A DNA stretch of 63,005 nt from positions 1 through 63,005 of the forward strand of contig JADFNI010000001.1 in the NCBI GenBank assembly GCA_022563455.1. The letters run 5' to 3'. A program made the translations under genes and the position numbers. Numbering within the stretch: the stretch's first letter is position 1; each line of letters begins with the position of its first letter. Source of the DNA: Nanobdellota archaeon. GTDB lineage: Archaea; Nanobdellota; Nanobdellia; Pacearchaeales; GW2011-AR1. The notes beneath the pieces are model-generated. The model ran no database searches. It was given only the letters and a program-made list of their open reading frames with translations, and had not been told where the DNA came from. This document shows, one piece after another, positions 8,037 through 62,830 of the stretch.

Positions 8037-8741
8037 ATGATTATTAGAAAAATTTTTGATGGTAATATCAATGAAGAAATTCATAACGAATTTTTGAAAT
8101 TTGGTAAAGGAGATTATAAAGATAAATTTTTGATGGAGGGTAAACGACAACCTAAGAAATGGAGCGTTAAAACAGGTCCTGAATTTGTTAATTTTTTAGT
8201 TCGGCGATCTCTCGATAAAGTTGGAAGGAGTGTTCAAGTTAAGGGAATAATCGTGTCCACAATAGACCTTAGAGGGGAAATTGATTTTGATATTGTTAAG
8301 GTTGGAAACTTCCAAGGAATTAGGAAGTTACAAATTGATACGGAGGTTGAGGTTGCAAAGATATTTGAATTGATGGATAAATATCCTCGAGCTTTTTTTG
8401 CATTGTCCTTTACTGGAGATGGTTTTGTTTTGAAGGTTAAAGCAAAAGCACCTAAAAGTGGAAAACCTGGGAAGTCTAGCGAAGAAGGGCCTAAGGTGGA
8501 TTTTTGCACCCTTAAAACTGATGACTCAACTTTGATTGATGAATTATTCTGGGAAAATATTGGATTTACTGAGATAAAAATTGCTCATGATATAAATGTT
8601 ACAGATATTGTTTATCCATCCAATATGGATGACTTAAAGCCTAGTGAAATTCGAGAACAAAGCAAAAGAAAGGGAATTCTTACTAGAAGGATTATATGTG
8701 ATGGCAAGAAAACCTCTAGTAAAGTTGAATTTGTTATTTGA
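8037..8741 (+). CDS. Hypothetical protein (234 aa)
   Basis: Long clean ORF with non-repetitive composition. No family was recognised. Confidence 0.5.
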   Translation: MIIRKIFDGNINEEIHNEFLKFGKGDYKDKFLMEGKRQPKKWSVKTGPEFVNFLVRRSLDKVGRSVQVKGIIVSTIDLRGEIDFDIVKVGNFQGIRKLQIDTEVEVAKIFELMDKYPRAFFALSFTGDGFVLKVKAKAPKSGKPGKSSEEGPKVDFCTLKTDDSTLIDELFWENIGFTEIKIAHDINVTDIVYPSNMDDLKPSEIREQSKRKGILTRRIICDGKKTSSKVEFVI

Positions 8742-9392
8742 TTAATAAATAATTCCTTTCTTTTTTACACATGAAGCACAAATTAATGCAGTATCTTTAA
8801 GTGACATGTAATACCTGTTTCCTTCTTCTAAGATGTCGTTGAATTTTTCCCATCCGTCTTCGAGTGTCATTTTTCCCTTGACTACTAGTTCTGGAACTTT
8901 TGATGCGTCCTCTAAAAGTTTTGCCCTTCTTTTCCACATTTTTGGATGATATAGATTTGGTTGGGCAGCTTTTGATATTTTTTTATTGCAGCTAAAACAA
9001 TTTTTTTGAGTCATTAAAAGTTCTTGCTCTCTGATTGCCCATTTTAATTGAAAATCTGCATCCTGAATTAAATGCTTATAGTTTCCAATTCCTCCAAGCC
9101 TGTTAAATGTTAATTCTATTTCTTCTTCAGAGGTATCTTTGTTTGTCACTAAAATTTCTCCGATTTTCCTAGAATATCTCCATACAGGATATTTTCTTCC
9201 CCCTCTTGGATTTGTGGTTGGCTTTCCAATTCTATATCCTTTAGATCCTGTTTTTATCTTTCCAATTTTAGAACCGCTTTTTCTAATGACTGCCCTATCT
9301 TTTTTTTCTTTTAGCTTTGTTCCTTTAGTTCGTTCTTTCTTTGAAATGTAACCTTTCTCTCCTGGAAGAATGTCTGGGGTTTTTATGACCAT
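8742..9392 (-). CDS. Hypothetical protein (216 aa) with basic N-terminus and CxxC...CxxC pair
   Basis: Long ORF. The N-terminal third is Lys/Gly/Arg-rich, and CFSC and CASC pairs suggest a zinc ribbon. No family was recognised. Confidence 0.5.
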   Translation of the reverse strand: MVIKTPDILPGEKGYISKKERTKGTKLKEKKDRAVIRKSGSKIGKIKTGSKGYRIGKPTTNPRGGRKYPVWRYSRKIGEILVTNKDTSEEEIELTFNRLGGIGNYKHLIQDADFQLKWAIREQELLMTQKNCFSCNKKISKAAQPNLYHPKMWKRRAKLLEDASKVPELVVKGKMTLEDGWEKFNDILEEGNRYYMSLKDTALICASCVKKKGIIY

Positions 9393-9607: not shown

Positions 9608-10570
9608 ATGACAGACGAGAATGGAAGTAGATCAGGAAGTTTGCAATTTTACCCAAGGGTAAGAGCAAAGAAAGTTATTCCTAGTGTAAACTGGAGACCT
9701 GTTAAAAAAACGAGTGTTGGACTTTTAGGATTTGTGGGCTATAAGGTTGGAATGATTTCCGTTTTTGTTAAGGATGATACTGAGGCGAGTCTTACTAAAG
9801 GGAAAAGAATAACAGTACCTGCTACGATCGTTGAATGTCCTTCAATGAAAATTTATTCTGTTAGGTTTTACAAAGGGAGTAAGGTTCTAAAAGATGTTGT
9901 TGTAACTAAGGATAAAGATTTGAAGAAAAAAATTAAGCTTTCTTCTGAAATTAAAAATTTTGAAGAGGCTATTAAAGATTTGAAGGATTTGAATTTTGAG
10001 GATGTTCGAGTTTTACTTTATACAAATGTTAAGATAACTACAGTGGGCAAAAAGAAACCTGATATGATTGAGGTTGGGCTTAGCGGGTCTAATGAGGAGA
10101 AATTGATATTTATTAAAGAAAGAATTGGAAAGGATATTTTGGTTAGTGAAGTTTTTAGTGATGGATTAATTGATGTTCGTGGAGTTACTAAAGGATTTGG
10201 CACTCAAGGACCTGTTAAAAGATTTGGAATTTCGTTGAAATCTCATAAATCTGAAAAGGGGAGACGAAGACCTGGATCTCTTGCCCCTTGGCATCCTGCA
10301 AGGGTTACATTTAGAGCTCCTCAGGCAGGACAAACAGGATATCATAATAGAATTACTTACAATAATGTTATTTTAAAAATTGGAAACATTAATGAGAATG
10401 ATATTAATAAGAAAGGTGGATTTGAACACTATGGGGTTATCAGGGGAGAGTATATTGTTCTTAGGGGTTCAATTCCTGGTCCTTCGAAAAGGGGAATTGT
10501 TATGACTTTGGCAATACGTCCAAGTAAATATTTAGCAAAGAAAAAGTTGGAGGTTCTTGAGATACGATGA
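9608..10570 (+). CDS. rpl3: 50S ribosomal protein L3
   Basis: SRSGSLQFYPRVRAKK matches the archaeal L3 N-terminus (..RRGSL.F.PRKRA). The track ORF 9557 was trimmed to ATG 9608. Confidence 0.92.
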   Translation: MTDENGSRSGSLQFYPRVRAKKVIPSVNWRPVKKTSVGLLGFVGYKVGMISVFVKDDTEASLTKGKRITVPATIVECPSMKIYSVRFYKGSKVLKDVVVTKDKDLKKKIKLSSEIKNFEEAIKDLKDLNFEDVRVLLYTNVKITTVGKKKPDMIEVGLSGSNEEKLIFIKERIGKDILVSEVFSDGLIDVRGVTKGFGTQGPVKRFGISLKSHKSEKGRRRPGSLAPWHPARVTFRAPQAGQTGYHNRITYNNVILKIGNINENDINKKGGFEHYGVIRGEYIVLRGSIPGPSKRGIVMTLAIRPSKYLAKKKLEVLEIR

Positions 10571-10851
10571 ATGACGAAATAGAAAGTTGTGGAAATCAAG
10601 CGTCTTGTGAATATGCGTTTGGCTATCCTCGTCTGTACACTAAACTAGGTCCTGAAGATGCGTTATGCCTCGGGAAGTTAAGTTATGATACTAGAGAGGG
10701 AAGTTATCATGCAACCCTAACACCTATGCCAGGATTTAAGAGTTTCGAGAGGCGAATTCAGTGCGCTCCTGCAGTAATGCTTACATCTCAAAGAAAGGTT
10801 GAAGGGATGCTTGGAAAATTACTTGAAGCAATGGAGGCAACTGGAAAATGA
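10567..10851 (+). CDS. Orphan 94-aa protein inserted between L3 and L4
   Basis: An open frame of 285 nt in an AT-rich genome. There are ATGA overlaps at both ends (L3 stop/ORF start at 10567-10570, ORF stop/L4 start at 10848-10851). It is Lys-poor and has 5 Cys, unlike the neighbouring r-proteins. Confidence 0.55.
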   Translation: MNDEIESCGNQASCEYAFGYPRLYTKLGPEDALCLGKLSYDTREGSYHATLTPMPGFKSFERRIQCAPAVMLTSQRKVEGMLGKLLEAMEATGK

Positions 10852-11636
10852 AAGCAAAATTAATGGATAAAACTGGAAAGGAAAAAGGAACAGTAGAACT
10901 TCCAAAGAACTTTAGCGTAAGAATCAGAGAAGATATTTTGTCTAAGGTTTATGAAACTTTGAAGGGAATTTATGCGCAACCTTATGGTGCGATGGAAGGA
11001 GCTGGGGCTGGATATTCTGCTTCAGGGATTATAAAGAAAAAAAGGCATGATTGGAAGGGATCTTACGGGAAAGGAATTTCTAGAATTCCTAGGAAGATTA
11101 TGTCTAGACATGGATCTAGTTTTAATTGGATTGGGGCAACAGTTGCCAGTACTCGAGGAGGTAGAAAACCTCATGCTCCTAGATCTGCAATGAACCCTTT
11201 CAAAAAAATTAATAAGAAGGAACTAAGAATCGCATTTAATTCTGCACTTGCAGGAACTGTTAATTTAAAATTTTTGGAGAAAAAATACGGTAAACCAATA
11301 AAATCTGGTTTTGTTTTTTCAAGCGATATTTTGGACTTGAAAACTAAGAATTTTATAACGAGCATGAAAACGGCATTTGGTGAAGACAATATTAAAAGTG
11401 TAATGAAGACTAAAAAAATTAGATCTGGAGTTGGAAAGATGAGAGGAAGAAAGTATAAGTCTAATGCTGGACTTTTGTTTGTTCTTGGAAACGCTGAATC
11501 TATGAAGAGGTCTGGAATTGATGTTGTTAATGTAAGGGATTTAAGGATCAAAGATTTATCTCCAAATGGAGAGCCTGGAAGACTTGTATGTTATACTAAA
11601 GATGCAATTAAAGAAATAGAAGAGAGGTTTAAATAA
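10848..11636 (+). CDS. rpl4: 50S ribosomal protein L4
   Basis: Operon position, plus MKAKLMDKTGKEKGTVELPKNF... and the GRKPHAPR region typical of archaeal L4. Confidence 0.92.
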   Translation: MKAKLMDKTGKEKGTVELPKNFSVRIREDILSKVYETLKGIYAQPYGAMEGAGAGYSASGIIKKKRHDWKGSYGKGISRIPRKIMSRHGSSFNWIGATVASTRGGRKPHAPRSAMNPFKKINKKELRIAFNSALAGTVNLKFLEKKYGKPIKSGFVFSSDILDLKTKNFITSMKTAFGEDNIKSVMKTKKIRSGVGKMRGRKYKSNAGLLFVLGNAESMKRSGIDVVNVRDLRIKDLSPNGEPGRLVCYTKDAIKEIEERFK

Positions 11637-13100: not shown

Positions 13101-13643
13101 ATGGCAGAAGAAATTAAGGACAAAAAGATAGATGCTGTAAAAGTTGAAGAAAAGGAAACTAAGGAGAAAACTGAGACTAAAGACATTAAGGTTGAAGAAA
13201 AGAAAGTTGAGAAAAAGAAGGAAGAAGTTAAAGTTAAGGATGTTGCAATTGCTAATGCTTATTCACTTAAGATCTCCGCAAAGTATTCGGTTTATATTTG
13301 TAAAGTTATAAAACATAAAACTCCTGAAAACGCGATTAAGCGACTTATGGAAGCTGCAACTGGTAAAAGGGCTATTCCTATGAGTGGCAGAGAAGTTGCT
13401 CACCAGAAAGGAAAAGGTATTAGTGGGGGAAAGTTTCCAAAAAATGCTTGTAATGATATCGCGACTGTTATTAAACAACTAAAGGCTAATGCGGACAATT
13501 TGGGAATTGAAAACCCTGTGATTACAATCGCTCAAGCGAATAAAGCTTCAATGCCATTTAGAAGTGGTGGGCGAAGAGGAAAAAGGACACACATACATTT
13601 AGAGGCAAGGGATAAAAGTAAATTGATGGAACCAAAAAAATAA
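13101..13643 (+). CDS. rpl22: 50S ribosomal protein L22 with ~45-aa K/E-rich N-terminal extension
   Basis: Operon position. The core begins around ANAYSLKISAKYSVYICKVIKHK, preceded by a low-complexity KE-rich tail. Confidence 0.9.
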   Translation: MAEEIKDKKIDAVKVEEKETKEKTETKDIKVEEKKVEKKKEEVKVKDVAIANAYSLKISAKYSVYICKVIKHKTPENAIKRLMEAATGKRAIPMSGREVAHQKGKGISGGKFPKNACNDIATVIKQLKANADNLGIENPVITIAQANKASMPFRSGGRRGKRTHIHLEARDKSKLMEPKK

Positions 13644-14428
13644 TGGAAGAAAAGAAATTTATAGAAGTTAGGAAGGACGAATATAACATTAAGCAATTTG
13701 TTAAGAGAATGTTTGGTAAGGGAAAGATTTCAAAAGTTAGAATTGAATATACGCCTGTTGGGGAAAAAATAATTATTTCGACTCATAAGCCTGGATGGAT
13801 TATTGGGAAGAGGGGGGAGAAAATTGCAGAATTAACTGAAATATTGAAGAAGAAATTTAAGATGGAAAACCCTCATGTAGATATTGAAGAGATCTTGCAT
13901 CCAGAATTTGATGCTCAATTGGTAGCAGATGACATTGCGCTTACGCTTGAAAGATTTGGAGCTATGAAGTATAAGGCTTCTAGTTATAGAATGCTTGGAA
14001 AGATAAAGAAGGGTGGTGCTCTTGGAGCAGAGTTAAGAGTTTCTGGAAAGCTTCCAAGTGATAGAGCTCGTAGCTGGAGATTTGCATTTGGATATTTAAA
14101 GAAAACTGGAGATGCTGCAAAGGTAGTTGACAGAGCCGAGTCTGTTGCCCAGACTAAGCAAGGAGTTGTTGGAATAAAGGTAGCTATTCTTGCTCCAGGG
14201 GTCATTGTGCACGATCAGATTACTGTAGATGAAGAATTTATGAAACAAGTTATTTCAAATGCTAGTATCGAAGAAGTTGAGGAGACTGTTAAAATAGTTA
14301 AGAAAAAAAGGAAAGTTGCACCTAAAAAAAAGGTATCTAAAAAGGAAGTACTAGTTGAAAAAGAAAAGAAAGTTGAGAAAGTTGAAGAGATTGAGAAAAT
14401 TGAGAAAATAAAGGAGACTAAGAAATAA
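13643..14428 (+). CDS. rps3: 30S ribosomal protein S3 with K/E-rich C-terminal extension
   Basis: A KH-domain region (PGWIIGKRGEKIAELTEILKKKF) plus operon position. Confidence 0.93.
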   Translation: MEEKKFIEVRKDEYNIKQFVKRMFGKGKISKVRIEYTPVGEKIIISTHKPGWIIGKRGEKIAELTEILKKKFKMENPHVDIEEILHPEFDAQLVADDIALTLERFGAMKYKASSYRMLGKIKKGGALGAELRVSGKLPSDRARSWRFAFGYLKKTGDAAKVVDRAESVAQTKQGVVGIKVAILAPGVIVHDQITVDEEFMKQVISNASIEEVEETVKIVKKKRKVAPKKKVSKKEVLVEKEKKVEKVEEIEKIEKIKETKK

Positions 14429-14430
14429 TA

Positions 14431-14637
14431 ATGGCAGATAAAAAAATATTGACAAATAAGGAAATTGAGACAAGAATCATAGATTTAAAAATTGAGCTTC
14501 TAAAACAACCACTTAAAAGGAAAAGCATTAAAAAGGAAATTGCGAGGCTTATTACCATGAGAACTATGAAAACCATGAGGACTATGAATGATTCAACTAA
14601 ACTAATTGAAGAAAAATCTTCAATGGAGGGTAAATAA
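14431..14637 (+). CDS. rpl29: 50S ribosomal protein L29
   Basis: Position after S3, with the LTNKEIETRIIDLKIELLK helix typical of L29. Confidence 0.85.
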   Translation: MADKKILTNKEIETRIIDLKIELLKQPLKRKSIKKEIARLITMRTMKTMRTMNDSTKLIEEKSSMEGK

Positions 14638-14638
14638 A

Positions 14639-14938
14639 GTGGATATTTGTCCGAAATGTGCATTGCCTCTTCCGGCTTGTGTCTGTAGCGAAATTGCTAA
14701 AACGCAACAGAATATAAACGTCAAGACGGAAAAACGAAGATTCGGAAAAGTGTCTACAATGATTGAAGGATTTGATGATGGCATTGATATCAAGGACATC
14801 GCAAAAAAGCTCAAGGCAAAACGAGCTTGCGGTGGAACTGTTAAAAATAAAGTTATTGAACTTCAAGGAAATCATAAGGGTCACATAAAACCAATTTTGG
14901 TAGAACTTGGATTTAGTGAGGATCAGATAAAAGATTAA
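14639..14938 (+). CDS. sui1: Translation initiation factor SUI1/aIF1
   Basis: (M)DICPKCALPLPACVCSEIAKTQQNINVKTEKRRFGKVSTMIEGFD... matches the archaeal aIF1 N-terminus (.ICP.CGLP...C.C). A GTG start at 14639 is preferred to the in-frame ATG at 14606, which lies inside L29. Confidence 0.85.
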   Translation: MDICPKCALPLPACVCSEIAKTQQNINVKTEKRRFGKVSTMIEGFDDGIDIKDIAKKLKAKRACGGTVKNKVIELQGNHKGHIKPILVELGFSEDQIKD

Positions 14939-19595: not shown

Positions 19596-20084
19596 ATGAG
19601 ATTAAGAACAATGAAGCGTAGAAGACTGGAAGGTAAAACTGATTATAAGCTTAGACGAGGGCTTTTGTCCTCAGGAGTTTTAAGAATTGTTGTTAGAAGG
19701 ACTAATAAATATTTTATTGTTCAAGTAGTGGAGAGCCACGAGGCACAAGATAAGGTGATAGCTAGTGTTACTTCAAAAGACTTACTAAGTAAGGGATGGG
19801 ATCTTAAAAAAGGTGGAAGTTTGAAATCAATTCCTGCTGGATATTTAACTGGACTTCTTCTTGCGAAAAAGATTGGTAAGGGAAAATTTATTATGGATCT
19901 TGGAATGTCTAGGACGATTAGAGGATCTAGAATATTCTCTGTCGTTAAAGGTCTTGTTGATGGTGGGCTTAATATAAATGCGGATTCGAAAATTTTTCCA
20001 ACAGATGAGAGGATATCTGGAGAACATTTAAAGGAAGATGTTAAGGAAATGATTGTTAAAGTTAAGGGGGGAATTGTAAACTAA
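19596..20084 (+). CDS. rpl18: 50S ribosomal protein L18
   Basis: RRRLEGKTDYKLRRGLL...RIVVRRTNKYFIVQV is the L18 signature. Confidence 0.9.
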   Translation: MRLRTMKRRRLEGKTDYKLRRGLLSSGVLRIVVRRTNKYFIVQVVESHEAQDKVIASVTSKDLLSKGWDLKKGGSLKSIPAGYLTGLLLAKKIGKGKFIMDLGMSRTIRGSRIFSVVKGLVDGGLNINADSKIFPTDERISGEHLKEDVKEMIVKVKGGIVN

Positions 20085-20986
20085 TGGCAGATTCAAATAT
20101 AGATAAGAAAGAAGCTCAGGCGGAGGAACTGAGGGAAAGAGAAATGGAAAAAGATATTCAAGAACCAAAGGAAGCTAATGCTGAAGAAAATCTAAAAGAG
20201 GTTGTTAAAATTGTTGAAGAGAAAGAGAAGAAGGAAGAAGAGAAAATATCTAAGGAGGCTGAAAAGAATTTTAAGGTTGAAGAGGGCCGAGGAGAATATA
20301 AGAGAGAGAGTAGGGAAGACCGATTCGCTAGAGAAGCTCAGGAAAAATTGGATGCTTGGGTTCCTAAGACGGACTTGGGGAGAAAAGTTAGATCAAATAA
20401 GGTTAAAGATATTGATGAAGTTTTAGAATCTGGACTTAAGATAATGGAGCCCGAGATAACTGATATTTTAATGCCTGGACTGAAAGTAGATACATTATTT
20501 ATCGGACAGGCTAAGGGTAAGTTTGGTGGTGGAAAGAGACGAGCATTTAGACAAACACAGAAGAAGACAAAGGAAGGAAACGTTTTGACTTTTGGTGTTA
20601 TGGCGGTTGTAGGAGATGGTAAGGGTCATATTGGGATTGGATATGGAAGGGCTGCTGAAACACTTCCTGCAAAAGAGAAGGCTATTCGAAAAGCTAAGAT
20701 GAACATGGTTAAGATTAAGCGAGGATGTGCCTCATTTGATTGTTCTTGTAGTGAACCTCACAGTGTCCCATTATCTGTTAAAGGGAAATGTTCTTCAGTA
20801 GTTATTGAATTGATTCCGGCACCTCAAGGGACTGGACTTGTGGTAAACGATGAAATAAAAAAGATATTAAGAGCCGTTGGGATAAGAGATATATATAGTA
20901 AAACTTCTGGTAAAACAAGAACTACATTTAATATGGCAAAAGCTTGTATGGCAGCACTAAATAAAATAGGAGATATACAATACTAG
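20084..20986 (+). CDS. rps5: 30S ribosomal protein S5 with ~95-aa acidic/K-E-rich N-terminal extension
   Basis: The core begins around WVPKTDLGRKV. FRQTQKKTKEGNVLTFGVMAVVGDGKGHIGIGYG is typical of S5. Confidence 0.92.
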   Translation: MADSNIDKKEAQAEELREREMEKDIQEPKEANAEENLKEVVKIVEEKEKKEEEKISKEAEKNFKVEEGRGEYKRESREDRFAREAQEKLDAWVPKTDLGRKVRSNKVKDIDEVLESGLKIMEPEITDILMPGLKVDTLFIGQAKGKFGGGKRRAFRQTQKKTKEGNVLTFGVMAVVGDGKGHIGIGYGRAAETLPAKEKAIRKAKMNMVKIKRGCASFDCSCSEPHSVPLSVKGKCSSVVIELIPAPQGTGLVVNDEIKKILRAVGIRDIYSKTSGKTRTTFNMAKACMAALNKIGDIQY

Positions 20987-61511: not shown

Positions 61512-61654
61512 TTTCGGACTCGAAGGTTCGATTCCATTATTTGCTTAGATGCGCGGACTGCTCAAGATCATCTCTTTGTTTATGTTTATTTTATCAAAGA
61601 GTTAATCTTTCGGACTCGAAGGTTCGATTCCATTATTTGCTTAGATGCGCGGAC
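61512..61654. repeat. 47-nt direct repeat (61512-61558 and 61608-61654) covering the tRNA-Gly 3' end plus 38 nt of trailer
   Basis: TTTCGGACTCGAAGGTTCGATTCCATTATTTGCTTAGATGCGCGGAC occurs twice exactly with a 96-nt period. The 49-nt spacer holds the CTCTTTG(61572-61578)/CAAAGAG(61595-61601) hairpin. Confidence 0.85.
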
Positions 61655-61736
61655 GGGGACTCGAACCCCGGTCAATTGGTTTCTTCAAACTTAAAATATT
61701 TGGAAGCCAATTATTCTGCCACTAAACTATCCACGC
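61646..61736 (-). tRNA. tRNA-Gly (anticodon UCC) with a 20-nt intron after position 37 (about 61681-61700)
   Basis: Reverse complement: GCGTGGATAGTTTAGTGGCAGAATAATTGGCTTCCA[AATATTTTAAGTTTGAAGAA]ACCAATTGACCGGGGTTCGAGTCCCCGTCCGCGCA. The acceptor stem is GCGTGGA/TCCGCGC. The intron pairs with the anticodon region (CAAA/TTTG, CTT/AAG) in a BHB-like fashion. Confidence 0.8.
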
Positions 61737-61789
61737 ATTAAAGGTAATATCCTTAAGAGGGTTTTAAAGTTTATCGTTGTATATTGCAA

Positions 61790-62628: not shown

Positions 62629-62650
62629 CCGATAATCTCTAGGAATATTA

Positions 62651-62762
62651 GACGGCCATAGTGGTTTGGTCACACCTGATCCCATTCCGAACTCAGAAGT
62701 TAAGCAAGCCTCCGTTTCTAGCTGTACTGTACTTTGTACGGGAAACTAGGAAAGCTGTCCAC
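62651..62762 (+). rRNA. rrf: 5S ribosomal RNA (ends +/- 5 nt)
   Basis: GACGGCCATAGTGGTTTGGTCACACCTGATCCCATTCCGAACTCAGAAGTTAAGC... matches the universal 5S core (CCATAG...CAC..GATCCCAT.CCGAACTC.GAAGTTAAGC). The terminal helix is GACGGC/GCTGTC, followed by a T-run. Confidence 0.9.
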
Positions 62763-62830
62763 CTTTTCTTATTCAACTTTGATTTTTATTAGGGTAAGGT
62801 TTTTAAATGGATTTCTATTTTCGCAGTAAT

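Follow-up and report, generated by a model that had tools for sequence, protein, structure and literature searches.

A small four-cysteine gene between the ribosomal protein L3 and L4 genes of a Nanobdellota archaeon, probably a translational relay with candidate relatives at the same junction

How does an extra small gene come to lie inside the L3-L4-L23-L2 ribosomal protein array, which is among the most conserved gene orders of cellular life, and what might it encode? We considered this question for a 63,005-nucleotide (nt) stretch of DNA from a Nanobdellota archaeon (contig JADFNI010000001.1, assembly GCA_022563455.1), hereafter the window, in which an open reading frame (ORF) of 94 amino acids (aa) separates the genes for L3 (uL3) and L4 (uL4) on the plus strand (Table 1). 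The translation of this small ORF is the one given in an earlier note on the same DNA, and the stop/start overlaps with both neighbors that the note described can be read directly: the ATG of the small ORF (10567-10569) overlaps the TGA of L3 (10568-10570) within an ATGA at 10567-10570, and its own TGA (10849-10851) overlaps the ATG of L4 (10848-10850) within a second ATGA at 10848-10851. Both neighbors are full length by comparison with relatives, the C terminus of L3 (KKKLEVLEIR, then the stop) and the N terminus of L4 (MKAKLMDKTG) matching theirs. The answer that we favor, and consider fairly likely, is that the small ORF is a genuine, translated, and vertically inherited four-cysteine gene, belonging to a family labeled CYS4 here, that serves as a coupled relay into L4 and encodes a metal-holding protein.

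The composition of the small ORF is that of a native protein-coding gene, yet not of a ribosomal protein. Its product contains six lysines, as previously counted, and four cysteines (C8, C14, C34, and C66) instead of the five that had been reported, and its isoelectric point (pI) of 5.8 differs from those of L23, L3, and L4 (about 10; range, 9.7 to 10.3), in line with the earlier view that it is not ribosomal protein-like. The G+C content, judged by eye to exceed that of the neighbors, indeed reaches 0.421 compared to 0.335 ± 0.040 for 285-nt coding windows of the stretch, which places it in the top 1.7%. This excess is confined to codon positions 1 and 2 (GC1, 0.52; GC2, 0.46; GC3, 0.28) and therefore reflects amino acid composition, GC3 being native-like (0.28 versus 0.23 for the genome). 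A segment richer in G+C than its AT-rich surroundings could also be a structured RNA or a chance open frame rather than a protein gene, and both non-self matches obtained with an exhaustive phmmer search of 1.84 billion representative proteins were translated repeats, one of them read as a transfer RNA (tRNA) array. However, these two matches scored through their repeats and were rejected as homologues: P0002 looks, from its motif, like a translated tandem tRNA array with about 5.6 bits per repeat, and P0003 is a triple repeat with about 13 bits each. No conserved RNA fold, for which the earlier note had suggested a check, was found in the segment either, since Rfam gave no match over the small ORF at the gathering score and only noise at expectation (E) values up to 10, ARAGORN predicted no tRNA within it, and its folding energy was slightly weaker than the shuffle mean (z = +1.07). 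The frame was open in 0.1% of shuffles of its own bases (P = 0.001), and the remaining five frames contain 5 to 9 stops each. We find the RNA or chance-frame explanation scarcely credible. Scans for bacterial-type promoters and terminators inside the small ORF returned none, such scans being uninformative for archaea.

To compare the L3/L4 junction across relatives, 160 loci were retrieved with an L3 probe from metagenomes and from genomes representing species. The window organism is a DPANN archaeon close to Pacearchaeota/Woesearchaeota. The survey set consisted of 79 distinct L3+L4 haplotypes with an L3 identity of at least 47% (Pacearchaeota/Woesearchaeota-like), the closest relative having an L3 protein 74% identical to that of the window. 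An inserted plus-strand ORF of 27 to 160 aa was present at this junction in 25 of the 79 haplotypes. The other 54 had none, and their L3 and L4 genes mostly met in a 4-nt ATGA overlap, the rest being separated by a gap of at most 16 nt. The more distant archaea sampled had L3/L4 gaps of at most 77 nt and no gap ORF of 30 aa or more, which bears out the claim that the junction is normally direct. Almost all of the inserted ORFs overlap the L3 stop by 4 nt and end between −4 and +3 nt from the L4 ATG, and insert-free sisters of carriers show a plain ATGA junction with no scar. The inserts could not be aligned at the DNA level. The reading frame was kept in the relatives that carry one, which was a further point singled out for checking.

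Thirteen of the 25 junction ORFs, including that of the window, could be aligned with invariant C8, C14, C34, G36, and C66 residues (window numbering), and the label CYS4, coined here, refers to the resulting pattern C-x5-7-C … C-x-G … C. The corresponding proteins comprise 66 to 94 aa, are mostly neutral to mildly acidic, and share about 15 to 30% identity with the window protein, in which the only cysteines are exactly those at the four invariant positions. By comparison, shuffled sequences subjected to the same alignment procedure gave at most three invariant columns, the fixed methionine counted. Pairwise searches connected CYS4 subgroups (L001-L015, E = 4e-6; L001-L009, E = 1e-3), and a CYS4 hidden Markov model (HMM) also matched ORFs outside its training set, such as P0011 (E = 7e-12). 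Another match from outside the training set was a 79-aa ORF at the L4/L23 junction of two loci (L019:5733-5972 and L121:4233-4472; E = 0.005), where all four cysteines and the glycine are aligned and the L3/L4 junction is empty. Wherever the context of a CYS4 member was looked up, its gene was situated between those of L3 and L4, shared their strand, and came within about 4 nt of both, and one member, P0006, was found as an identical protein on at least 24 contigs from many samples. The small ORF can consequently no longer be called an orphan, as at least 12 other distinct genomes have a divergent homologue at this junction and a similar ORF occurs at L4/L23. Within the alignment it is the most divergent member, in which the stretch from C14 to C34 is expanded by approximately 11 residues and the loop leading to C66 is also longer. 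From position and cysteine pattern, the small ORF appears to be a divergent member of an undescribed, lineage-restricted, and fast-evolving four-cysteine family.

Beyond these relatives, searches of sequence and structure collections returned little. A word-indexed search of 5.8 billion proteins matched the small ORF only to itself, the phmmer search described above found only the ORF itself and the two repeat-inflated matches, and profile searches of the 5.8-billion-sequence collection gained only P0005, P0010, and P0011. The exact window protein was found only on contigs of the same genome, with one or two single-nucleotide polymorphisms that all lie outside the ORF, and hence gives no population signal. 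None of the 13 CYS4 members matched Pfam or NCBIfam, PADLOC and PHROGs contained no CYS4 match, and a profile search of the PDB (hmmsearch) matched no ribosomal chain and gave only weak eIF1 matches (E = 0.66 to 1.1) on the “C-x-G-x-I … C” stretch. A relationship with the SUI1/aIF1 translation factor, which is encoded in the same operon, was considered and rejected because hhalign against the aIF1 of the clade gave a probability of 1.1% and Pfam SUI1 was not matched. The earlier remark that no family could be recognized thus holds for Pfam, NCBIfam, PADLOC, PHROGs, the PDB, and viral collections, and literature searches found no account of such L3/L4 junction ORFs. AlphaFold2 models, computed from an input alignment of nine sequences, hinted only at a hairpin and a C-terminal helix; the hairpin (residues 34 to 53, after C-x-G) was the best part of the window ORF model, still with a predicted local distance difference test score (pLDDT) of 52 to 58. 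A Foldseek search of this model against the PDB gave nothing credible (best E = 2.3). Since four cysteines are invariant in a cytoplasmic protein, a single metal site is suggested, and these residues probably hold one metal ion, putatively zinc.

The ends of the small ORF also carry the features expected of coupled translation. GGAGGT and GGAGG runs resembling a Shine-Dalgarno (SD) site lie within the last codons of L3 and of the small ORF, respectively, a short distance before the next start (Table 1). The TTGGAGGT motif at the end of L3 is kept in relatives whether their junction is filled or empty, and its GGAGGT would be the SD-like site that serves L4 in insert-free genomes. SD-like runs of at least 5 nt precede L4 in 10 of the 25 inserted ORFs compared to 6% of control windows inside the inserts. 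The C-terminal likeness of CYS4 proteins (LEKMG, ISGGS, and MEATGK) is largely explained by this SD site for L4, which is a constraint at the DNA level. In reporter tests of gene pairs with 4-nt or 1-nt overlaps performed with Haloferax volcanii and Escherichia coli, 13 of 14 pairs were strictly coupled (PMC6728339), and coupling was nearly gone at a spacing of about 20 nt (PMC10666635). By the same route, ribosomes finishing L3 at its TGA would resume at the small-ORF ATG that overlaps it, aided by GGAGGT, and those finishing the small ORF would restart at the overlapping L4 ATG, aided by the GGAGG in its end. The small ORF thereby probably relays translation from L3 into L4, and such a role would preserve the frame even if the protein itself were only weakly selected. 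The suggestion that the ORF is tolerated because it preserves coupling fits well, since all inserts start and end a few nucleotides from their neighbors, most with an SD-like run of their own for L4.

The same suggestion had cast the ORF as a possible selfish insertion. A recent arrival of foreign or mobile DNA, be it a cassette, a gene of viral origin, or what is left of a transposon, would agree with a G+C content above that of the neighbors and with the different ORFs that different genomes bear at L3/L4. Nevertheless, GC3 is native-like, the G+C excess being at codon positions 1 and 2, neither the window nor 170 related loci contain a second copy, no terminal or inverted repeats flank it beyond chance, and viral contigs, phage records, PHROGs, and PADLOC gave no match. 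No near-identical copy was found in an unrelated genome or in a different genomic context. Moreover, the distance between CYS4 proteins correlates with the distance between their hosts (Mantel rho = 0.37, p = 0.005), so that vertical descent is favored. As a recent or mobile element, the selfish insertion does not stand up to these results, and we rate it as very unlikely. A tandem duplication of the L3/L4 junction was also tried as an origin by Smith-Waterman comparison of inserts with their own L3 and L4 and was rejected, the window giving z scores relative to shuffles of −1.0 and 2.4 and only isolated outliers being seen elsewhere (L020, z = 6.6; L134, z = 4.1). An 18-nt in-frame repeat that is 83% identical between the 3′ end of the small ORF (10830-10847) and L4 codons 5 to 10 (10862-10879) (AATGGAGGCAACTGGAAA / AATGGATAAAACTGGAAA) may have been left by a duplication of the junction, but chance repeats of at least equal strength lie nearby.

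CYS4 evolves several times faster than L3+L4; for instance, the proteins of L125 and L131 differ at 7% of L3+L4 sites and at 39% of CYS4 sites. The 13 carriers fall within a clade of 43 tips, in 30 of which CYS4 is not at L3/L4, and 11 state changes are needed on a neighbor-joining L3+L4 tree. These changes are most simply explained by a single ancient gain and about ten later exact losses, and such clean losses could proceed through the ATGA…ATGA on either side of the insert, a 4-nt direct repeat.

Similar insertions also occur at other junctions of the array. Counted per locus without de-duplication and with an insert defined as more than 100 nt, 47 of 131 loci have one at L3/L4, 19 of 113 at L4/L23, 23 of 110 at L23/L2, and 6 of 96 at L2/S19. 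Tightly packed plus-strand extra ORFs were seen in relatives at L4/L23, L23/L2, L2/S19, and S19/L22 (L001, L003, L009, L016, L017, L019, L022, L031, L063, L103, L141, L163, and others), and they group into junction-specific families, e.g., L063/L141/L163 at L4/L23 and L017/L103 at L23/L2. In L001, four of the junctions are widened, and ORFs were extracted from three of these. The 678-nt L4/L23 gap of L149 encodes a 215-aa DEDD-type exonuclease (PF00929, RNase_T; E = 2e-12), which the close relative L151 does not have. As a separate observation, L017 and L116 carry a 60-aa cysteine-rich ORF with “C-N-G-E-I” at L4/L23.

These observations give weight to the main rival explanation, in which the small ORF is a near-neutral passenger, DNA that at some time entered the junction and whose frame is kept only because an interruption would uncouple L4 from L3, the peptide itself being useless. 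Pairs of inserted ORFs gave ratios of nonsynonymous to synonymous substitution rates (dN/dS) of 0.45 to 0.8, values that rest on few sites and are not clearly below 1, and weak selection of this kind is what a passenger would show. The patchy distribution, the scarless losses, the 12 further genomes with apparently unrelated ORFs at L3/L4, the tightly packed ORFs at L4/L23, L23/L2, and L2/S19, and the SD site that accounts for C-terminal similarity point the same way. Four cysteines and one glycine nonetheless remain invariant amid about 15 to 30% identity, where drift would lose them, a CYS4-like ORF occurs at a second junction, and one member recurs unchanged on at least 24 contigs drawn from many samples. 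We therefore judge the passenger explanation unlikely, though it deserves more weight than any other rival. Under the preferred reading of a coupled four-cysteine gene, the frame would be held open by two needs, namely, the cysteine scaffold of the protein and translation into L4.

Several points nevertheless count against the preferred reading, in addition to the dN/dS values. The HMM built without the window ORF ranked it first among non-members with only 10.5 bits (E = 0.19 over 6,410 ORFs, or roughly 3e-5 for a single ORF at that position), a score that is weak alone, so that membership of the window ORF rests on its position and cysteine pattern. The pLDDT values of 44.4 for the window ORF and 41.6 for P0006 give neither a fold nor a metal site in the predicted models. 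The C-terminal “conservation” is in part due to the SD site for L4 and not to the protein, and the neighbor-joining tree behind the loss count is crude.

If the protein is made, what could it do? The earlier note had proposed a ribosome-associated or assembly-related factor. Subunits of one complex are enriched among overlapping gene pairs (PMC10666635), and the gene lies inside the most conserved ribosomal protein array, coupled to both L3 and L4, as might be expected of a new clade-specific stoichiometric ribosomal protein or of a dedicated L3/L4 assembly factor or chaperone. Such an identity is improbable in our view: the window protein has a pI of 5.8 and its family is mostly neutral to acidic, most close relatives lack CYS4, which outpaces L3+L4 several-fold in its evolution, and neither Pfam nor the ribosome chains of the PDB contain a ribosomal protein match. 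A broader role in ribosome association or assembly stays plausible, if somewhat weakened by the patchy occurrence (13 of 43 tips), the weak selection, and the mostly neutral-acidic character. Our best guess is a dispensable accessory protein produced alongside the ribosomal proteins. We give a low chance to the more specific idea that CYS4 is a zinc-binding factor whose target is the ribosome or nascent L3/L4, and that it is one of a set of junction-specific, fast-evolving small proteins encoded in the ribosomal protein operon of Pacearchaeota/Woesearchaeota-like DPANN archaea. Dedicated chaperones exist in eukaryotes for both neighbors, Rrb1 for uL3 and Acl4 for uL4, and by analogy a minimal dedicated chaperone of comparable role is a possibility for CYS4.

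Table 1. Features of the window discussed in the text
Feature	Position	Strand	Basis or remark
Ribosomal protein L3 (uL3) gene	9608..10570	+	Pfam PF00297, E 4e-57
GGAGGT in last L3 codons (L-E-V), 12 nt before small-ORF ATG	10549..10554	+	Sequence, SD scan
Small ORF, 94 aa, putative divergent CYS4 member	10567..10851	+	Open frame, family alignment, leave-one-out HMM
C8 and C14 codons (10588-10590, 10606-10608), first cysteine pair C-x5-C	10588..10608	+	Invariant alignment columns
C34-L35-G36 codons, invariant C-x-G opening predicted beta-hairpin (residues 34-53)	10666..10674	+	Invariant columns
C66 codon, fourth invariant cysteine	10762..10764	+	Invariant column
GGAGG in last small-ORF codons (M-E-A), 10 nt before L4 ATG	10833..10837	+	Sequence
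Ribosomal protein L4 (uL4) gene	10848..11636	+	Pfam PF00573, E 9e-15
aIF1/SUI1 translation factor gene, same operon	14606..14938		PF01253, E 1e-19
L30 gene	20991..21338		
Second inserted ORF, 108 aa, between L30 and L15	21340..21666	+	No Pfam match, not CYS4-like
L15 gene	21666..22211		

A second ORF (MGISERNMVACEVYD…) is wedged between ribosomal protein genes further along the window (Table 1). It starts 1 nt past the L30 stop and overlaps the L15 ATG by 1 nt (TAATG), with SD-like runs before both starts. Some core ribosomal proteins of the window have unusually long low-complexity additions: S5 (20084..20986) is extended at its N terminus by about 150 aa rich in Lys and Glu, the N terminus of L22 (13101..13643) is also extended by Lys/Glu-rich sequence, and S3 (13643..14428) has a Lys/Glu-rich C-terminal tail. 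Directly upstream of L3, two ORFs of 234 aa (8037..8741, +) and 216 aa (8742..9392, −) have no Pfam match, and ORFs comparable to them in length and direction also come before L3 in L163 and L165, two related loci. Also upstream of L3, a 107-aa GIY-YIG ORF at 359-682 (−) was called in L167, L170, L171, and L172 and not in L165, L166, or L168; this variation occurs among contigs of one population, the one sharing the unchanged CYS4 protein P0006, and may be a mobile endonuclease polymorphism. Near the end of the window, a cluster of three tRNAs adjoining the 5S rRNA gene (62648..62763) includes tRNA-Gly(UCC), called with 94 nt (61644..61737, −), and tRNA-Arg(CCU), called with 78 nt, lengths that suggest an intron or an extra arm, at least in tRNA-Gly(UCC).

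An extra, tightly coupled small gene is thus present at L3/L4 in roughly one of every three distinct genomes of a single DPANN clade. What is new is an undescribed four-cysteine family that is probably produced together with ribosomal proteins, and the junction offers a natural test case for the insertion of a gene into, and its clean removal from, a translationally coupled operon. Several junction ORFs were missing from the searched protein collection, which calls for caution with annotations. Should CYS4 act on the ribosome, the translation machinery of these organisms, whose genomes are very small, would have gained a component particular to their lineage, and if it is a chaperone or ribosome factor, ultra-small archaea would be adding parts of their own to the translation apparatus.

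The arrangement can be compared with several known systems. With termination-reinitiation gene pairs (Huber et al. 2019, PMC6728339; 2023, PMC10666635), it shares the 4-nt ATGA overlap, which occurs here on both sides of the small ORF, a spacing within the coupling range, and SD-like motifs that lie within the upstream gene near its 3′ end. It differs from them in that a small extra gene forms the middle link between two essential ribosomal protein genes that directly overlap in most relatives, and coupling, known there from reporters, is predicted here from sequence features. Like aIF1/SUI1, CYS4 is a non-ribosomal gene embedded in an archaeal ribosomal protein array, and its “C-x-G-x-I … C” stretch weakly resembles eukaryotic eIF1, although the profile-profile probability is only 1% and CYS4 is too short for the SUI1 fold. 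Zinc ribbons occur in ribosomal proteins such as eL37, eL43, eS27, and uS14, among others. These proteins and the small cysteine-rich (zinc-finger-type) proteins of archaea resemble CYS4 in size (66 to 94 aa) and in having four conserved cysteines, which suggest one tetrahedral metal site. In contrast, CYS4 lacks CxxC or CPxCG knuckles, its cysteines being spaced C-x5-7-C … C-x-G … C, and it is mostly neutral-acidic instead of basic, patchy in distribution, and without a match in Pfam, NCBIfam, or the PDB. Finally, lineage-specific ORFan genes are known from the operon-evolution literature to be added to existing operons, and CYS4 is comparable to them as a young or fast-evolving, dispensable gene riding on a native operon. 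Unlike such additions, it lies not at the end of an operon but inside one of the most conserved arrays known, the two coupling signals are preserved without change, and the same anatomy recurs at several junctions across the clade.

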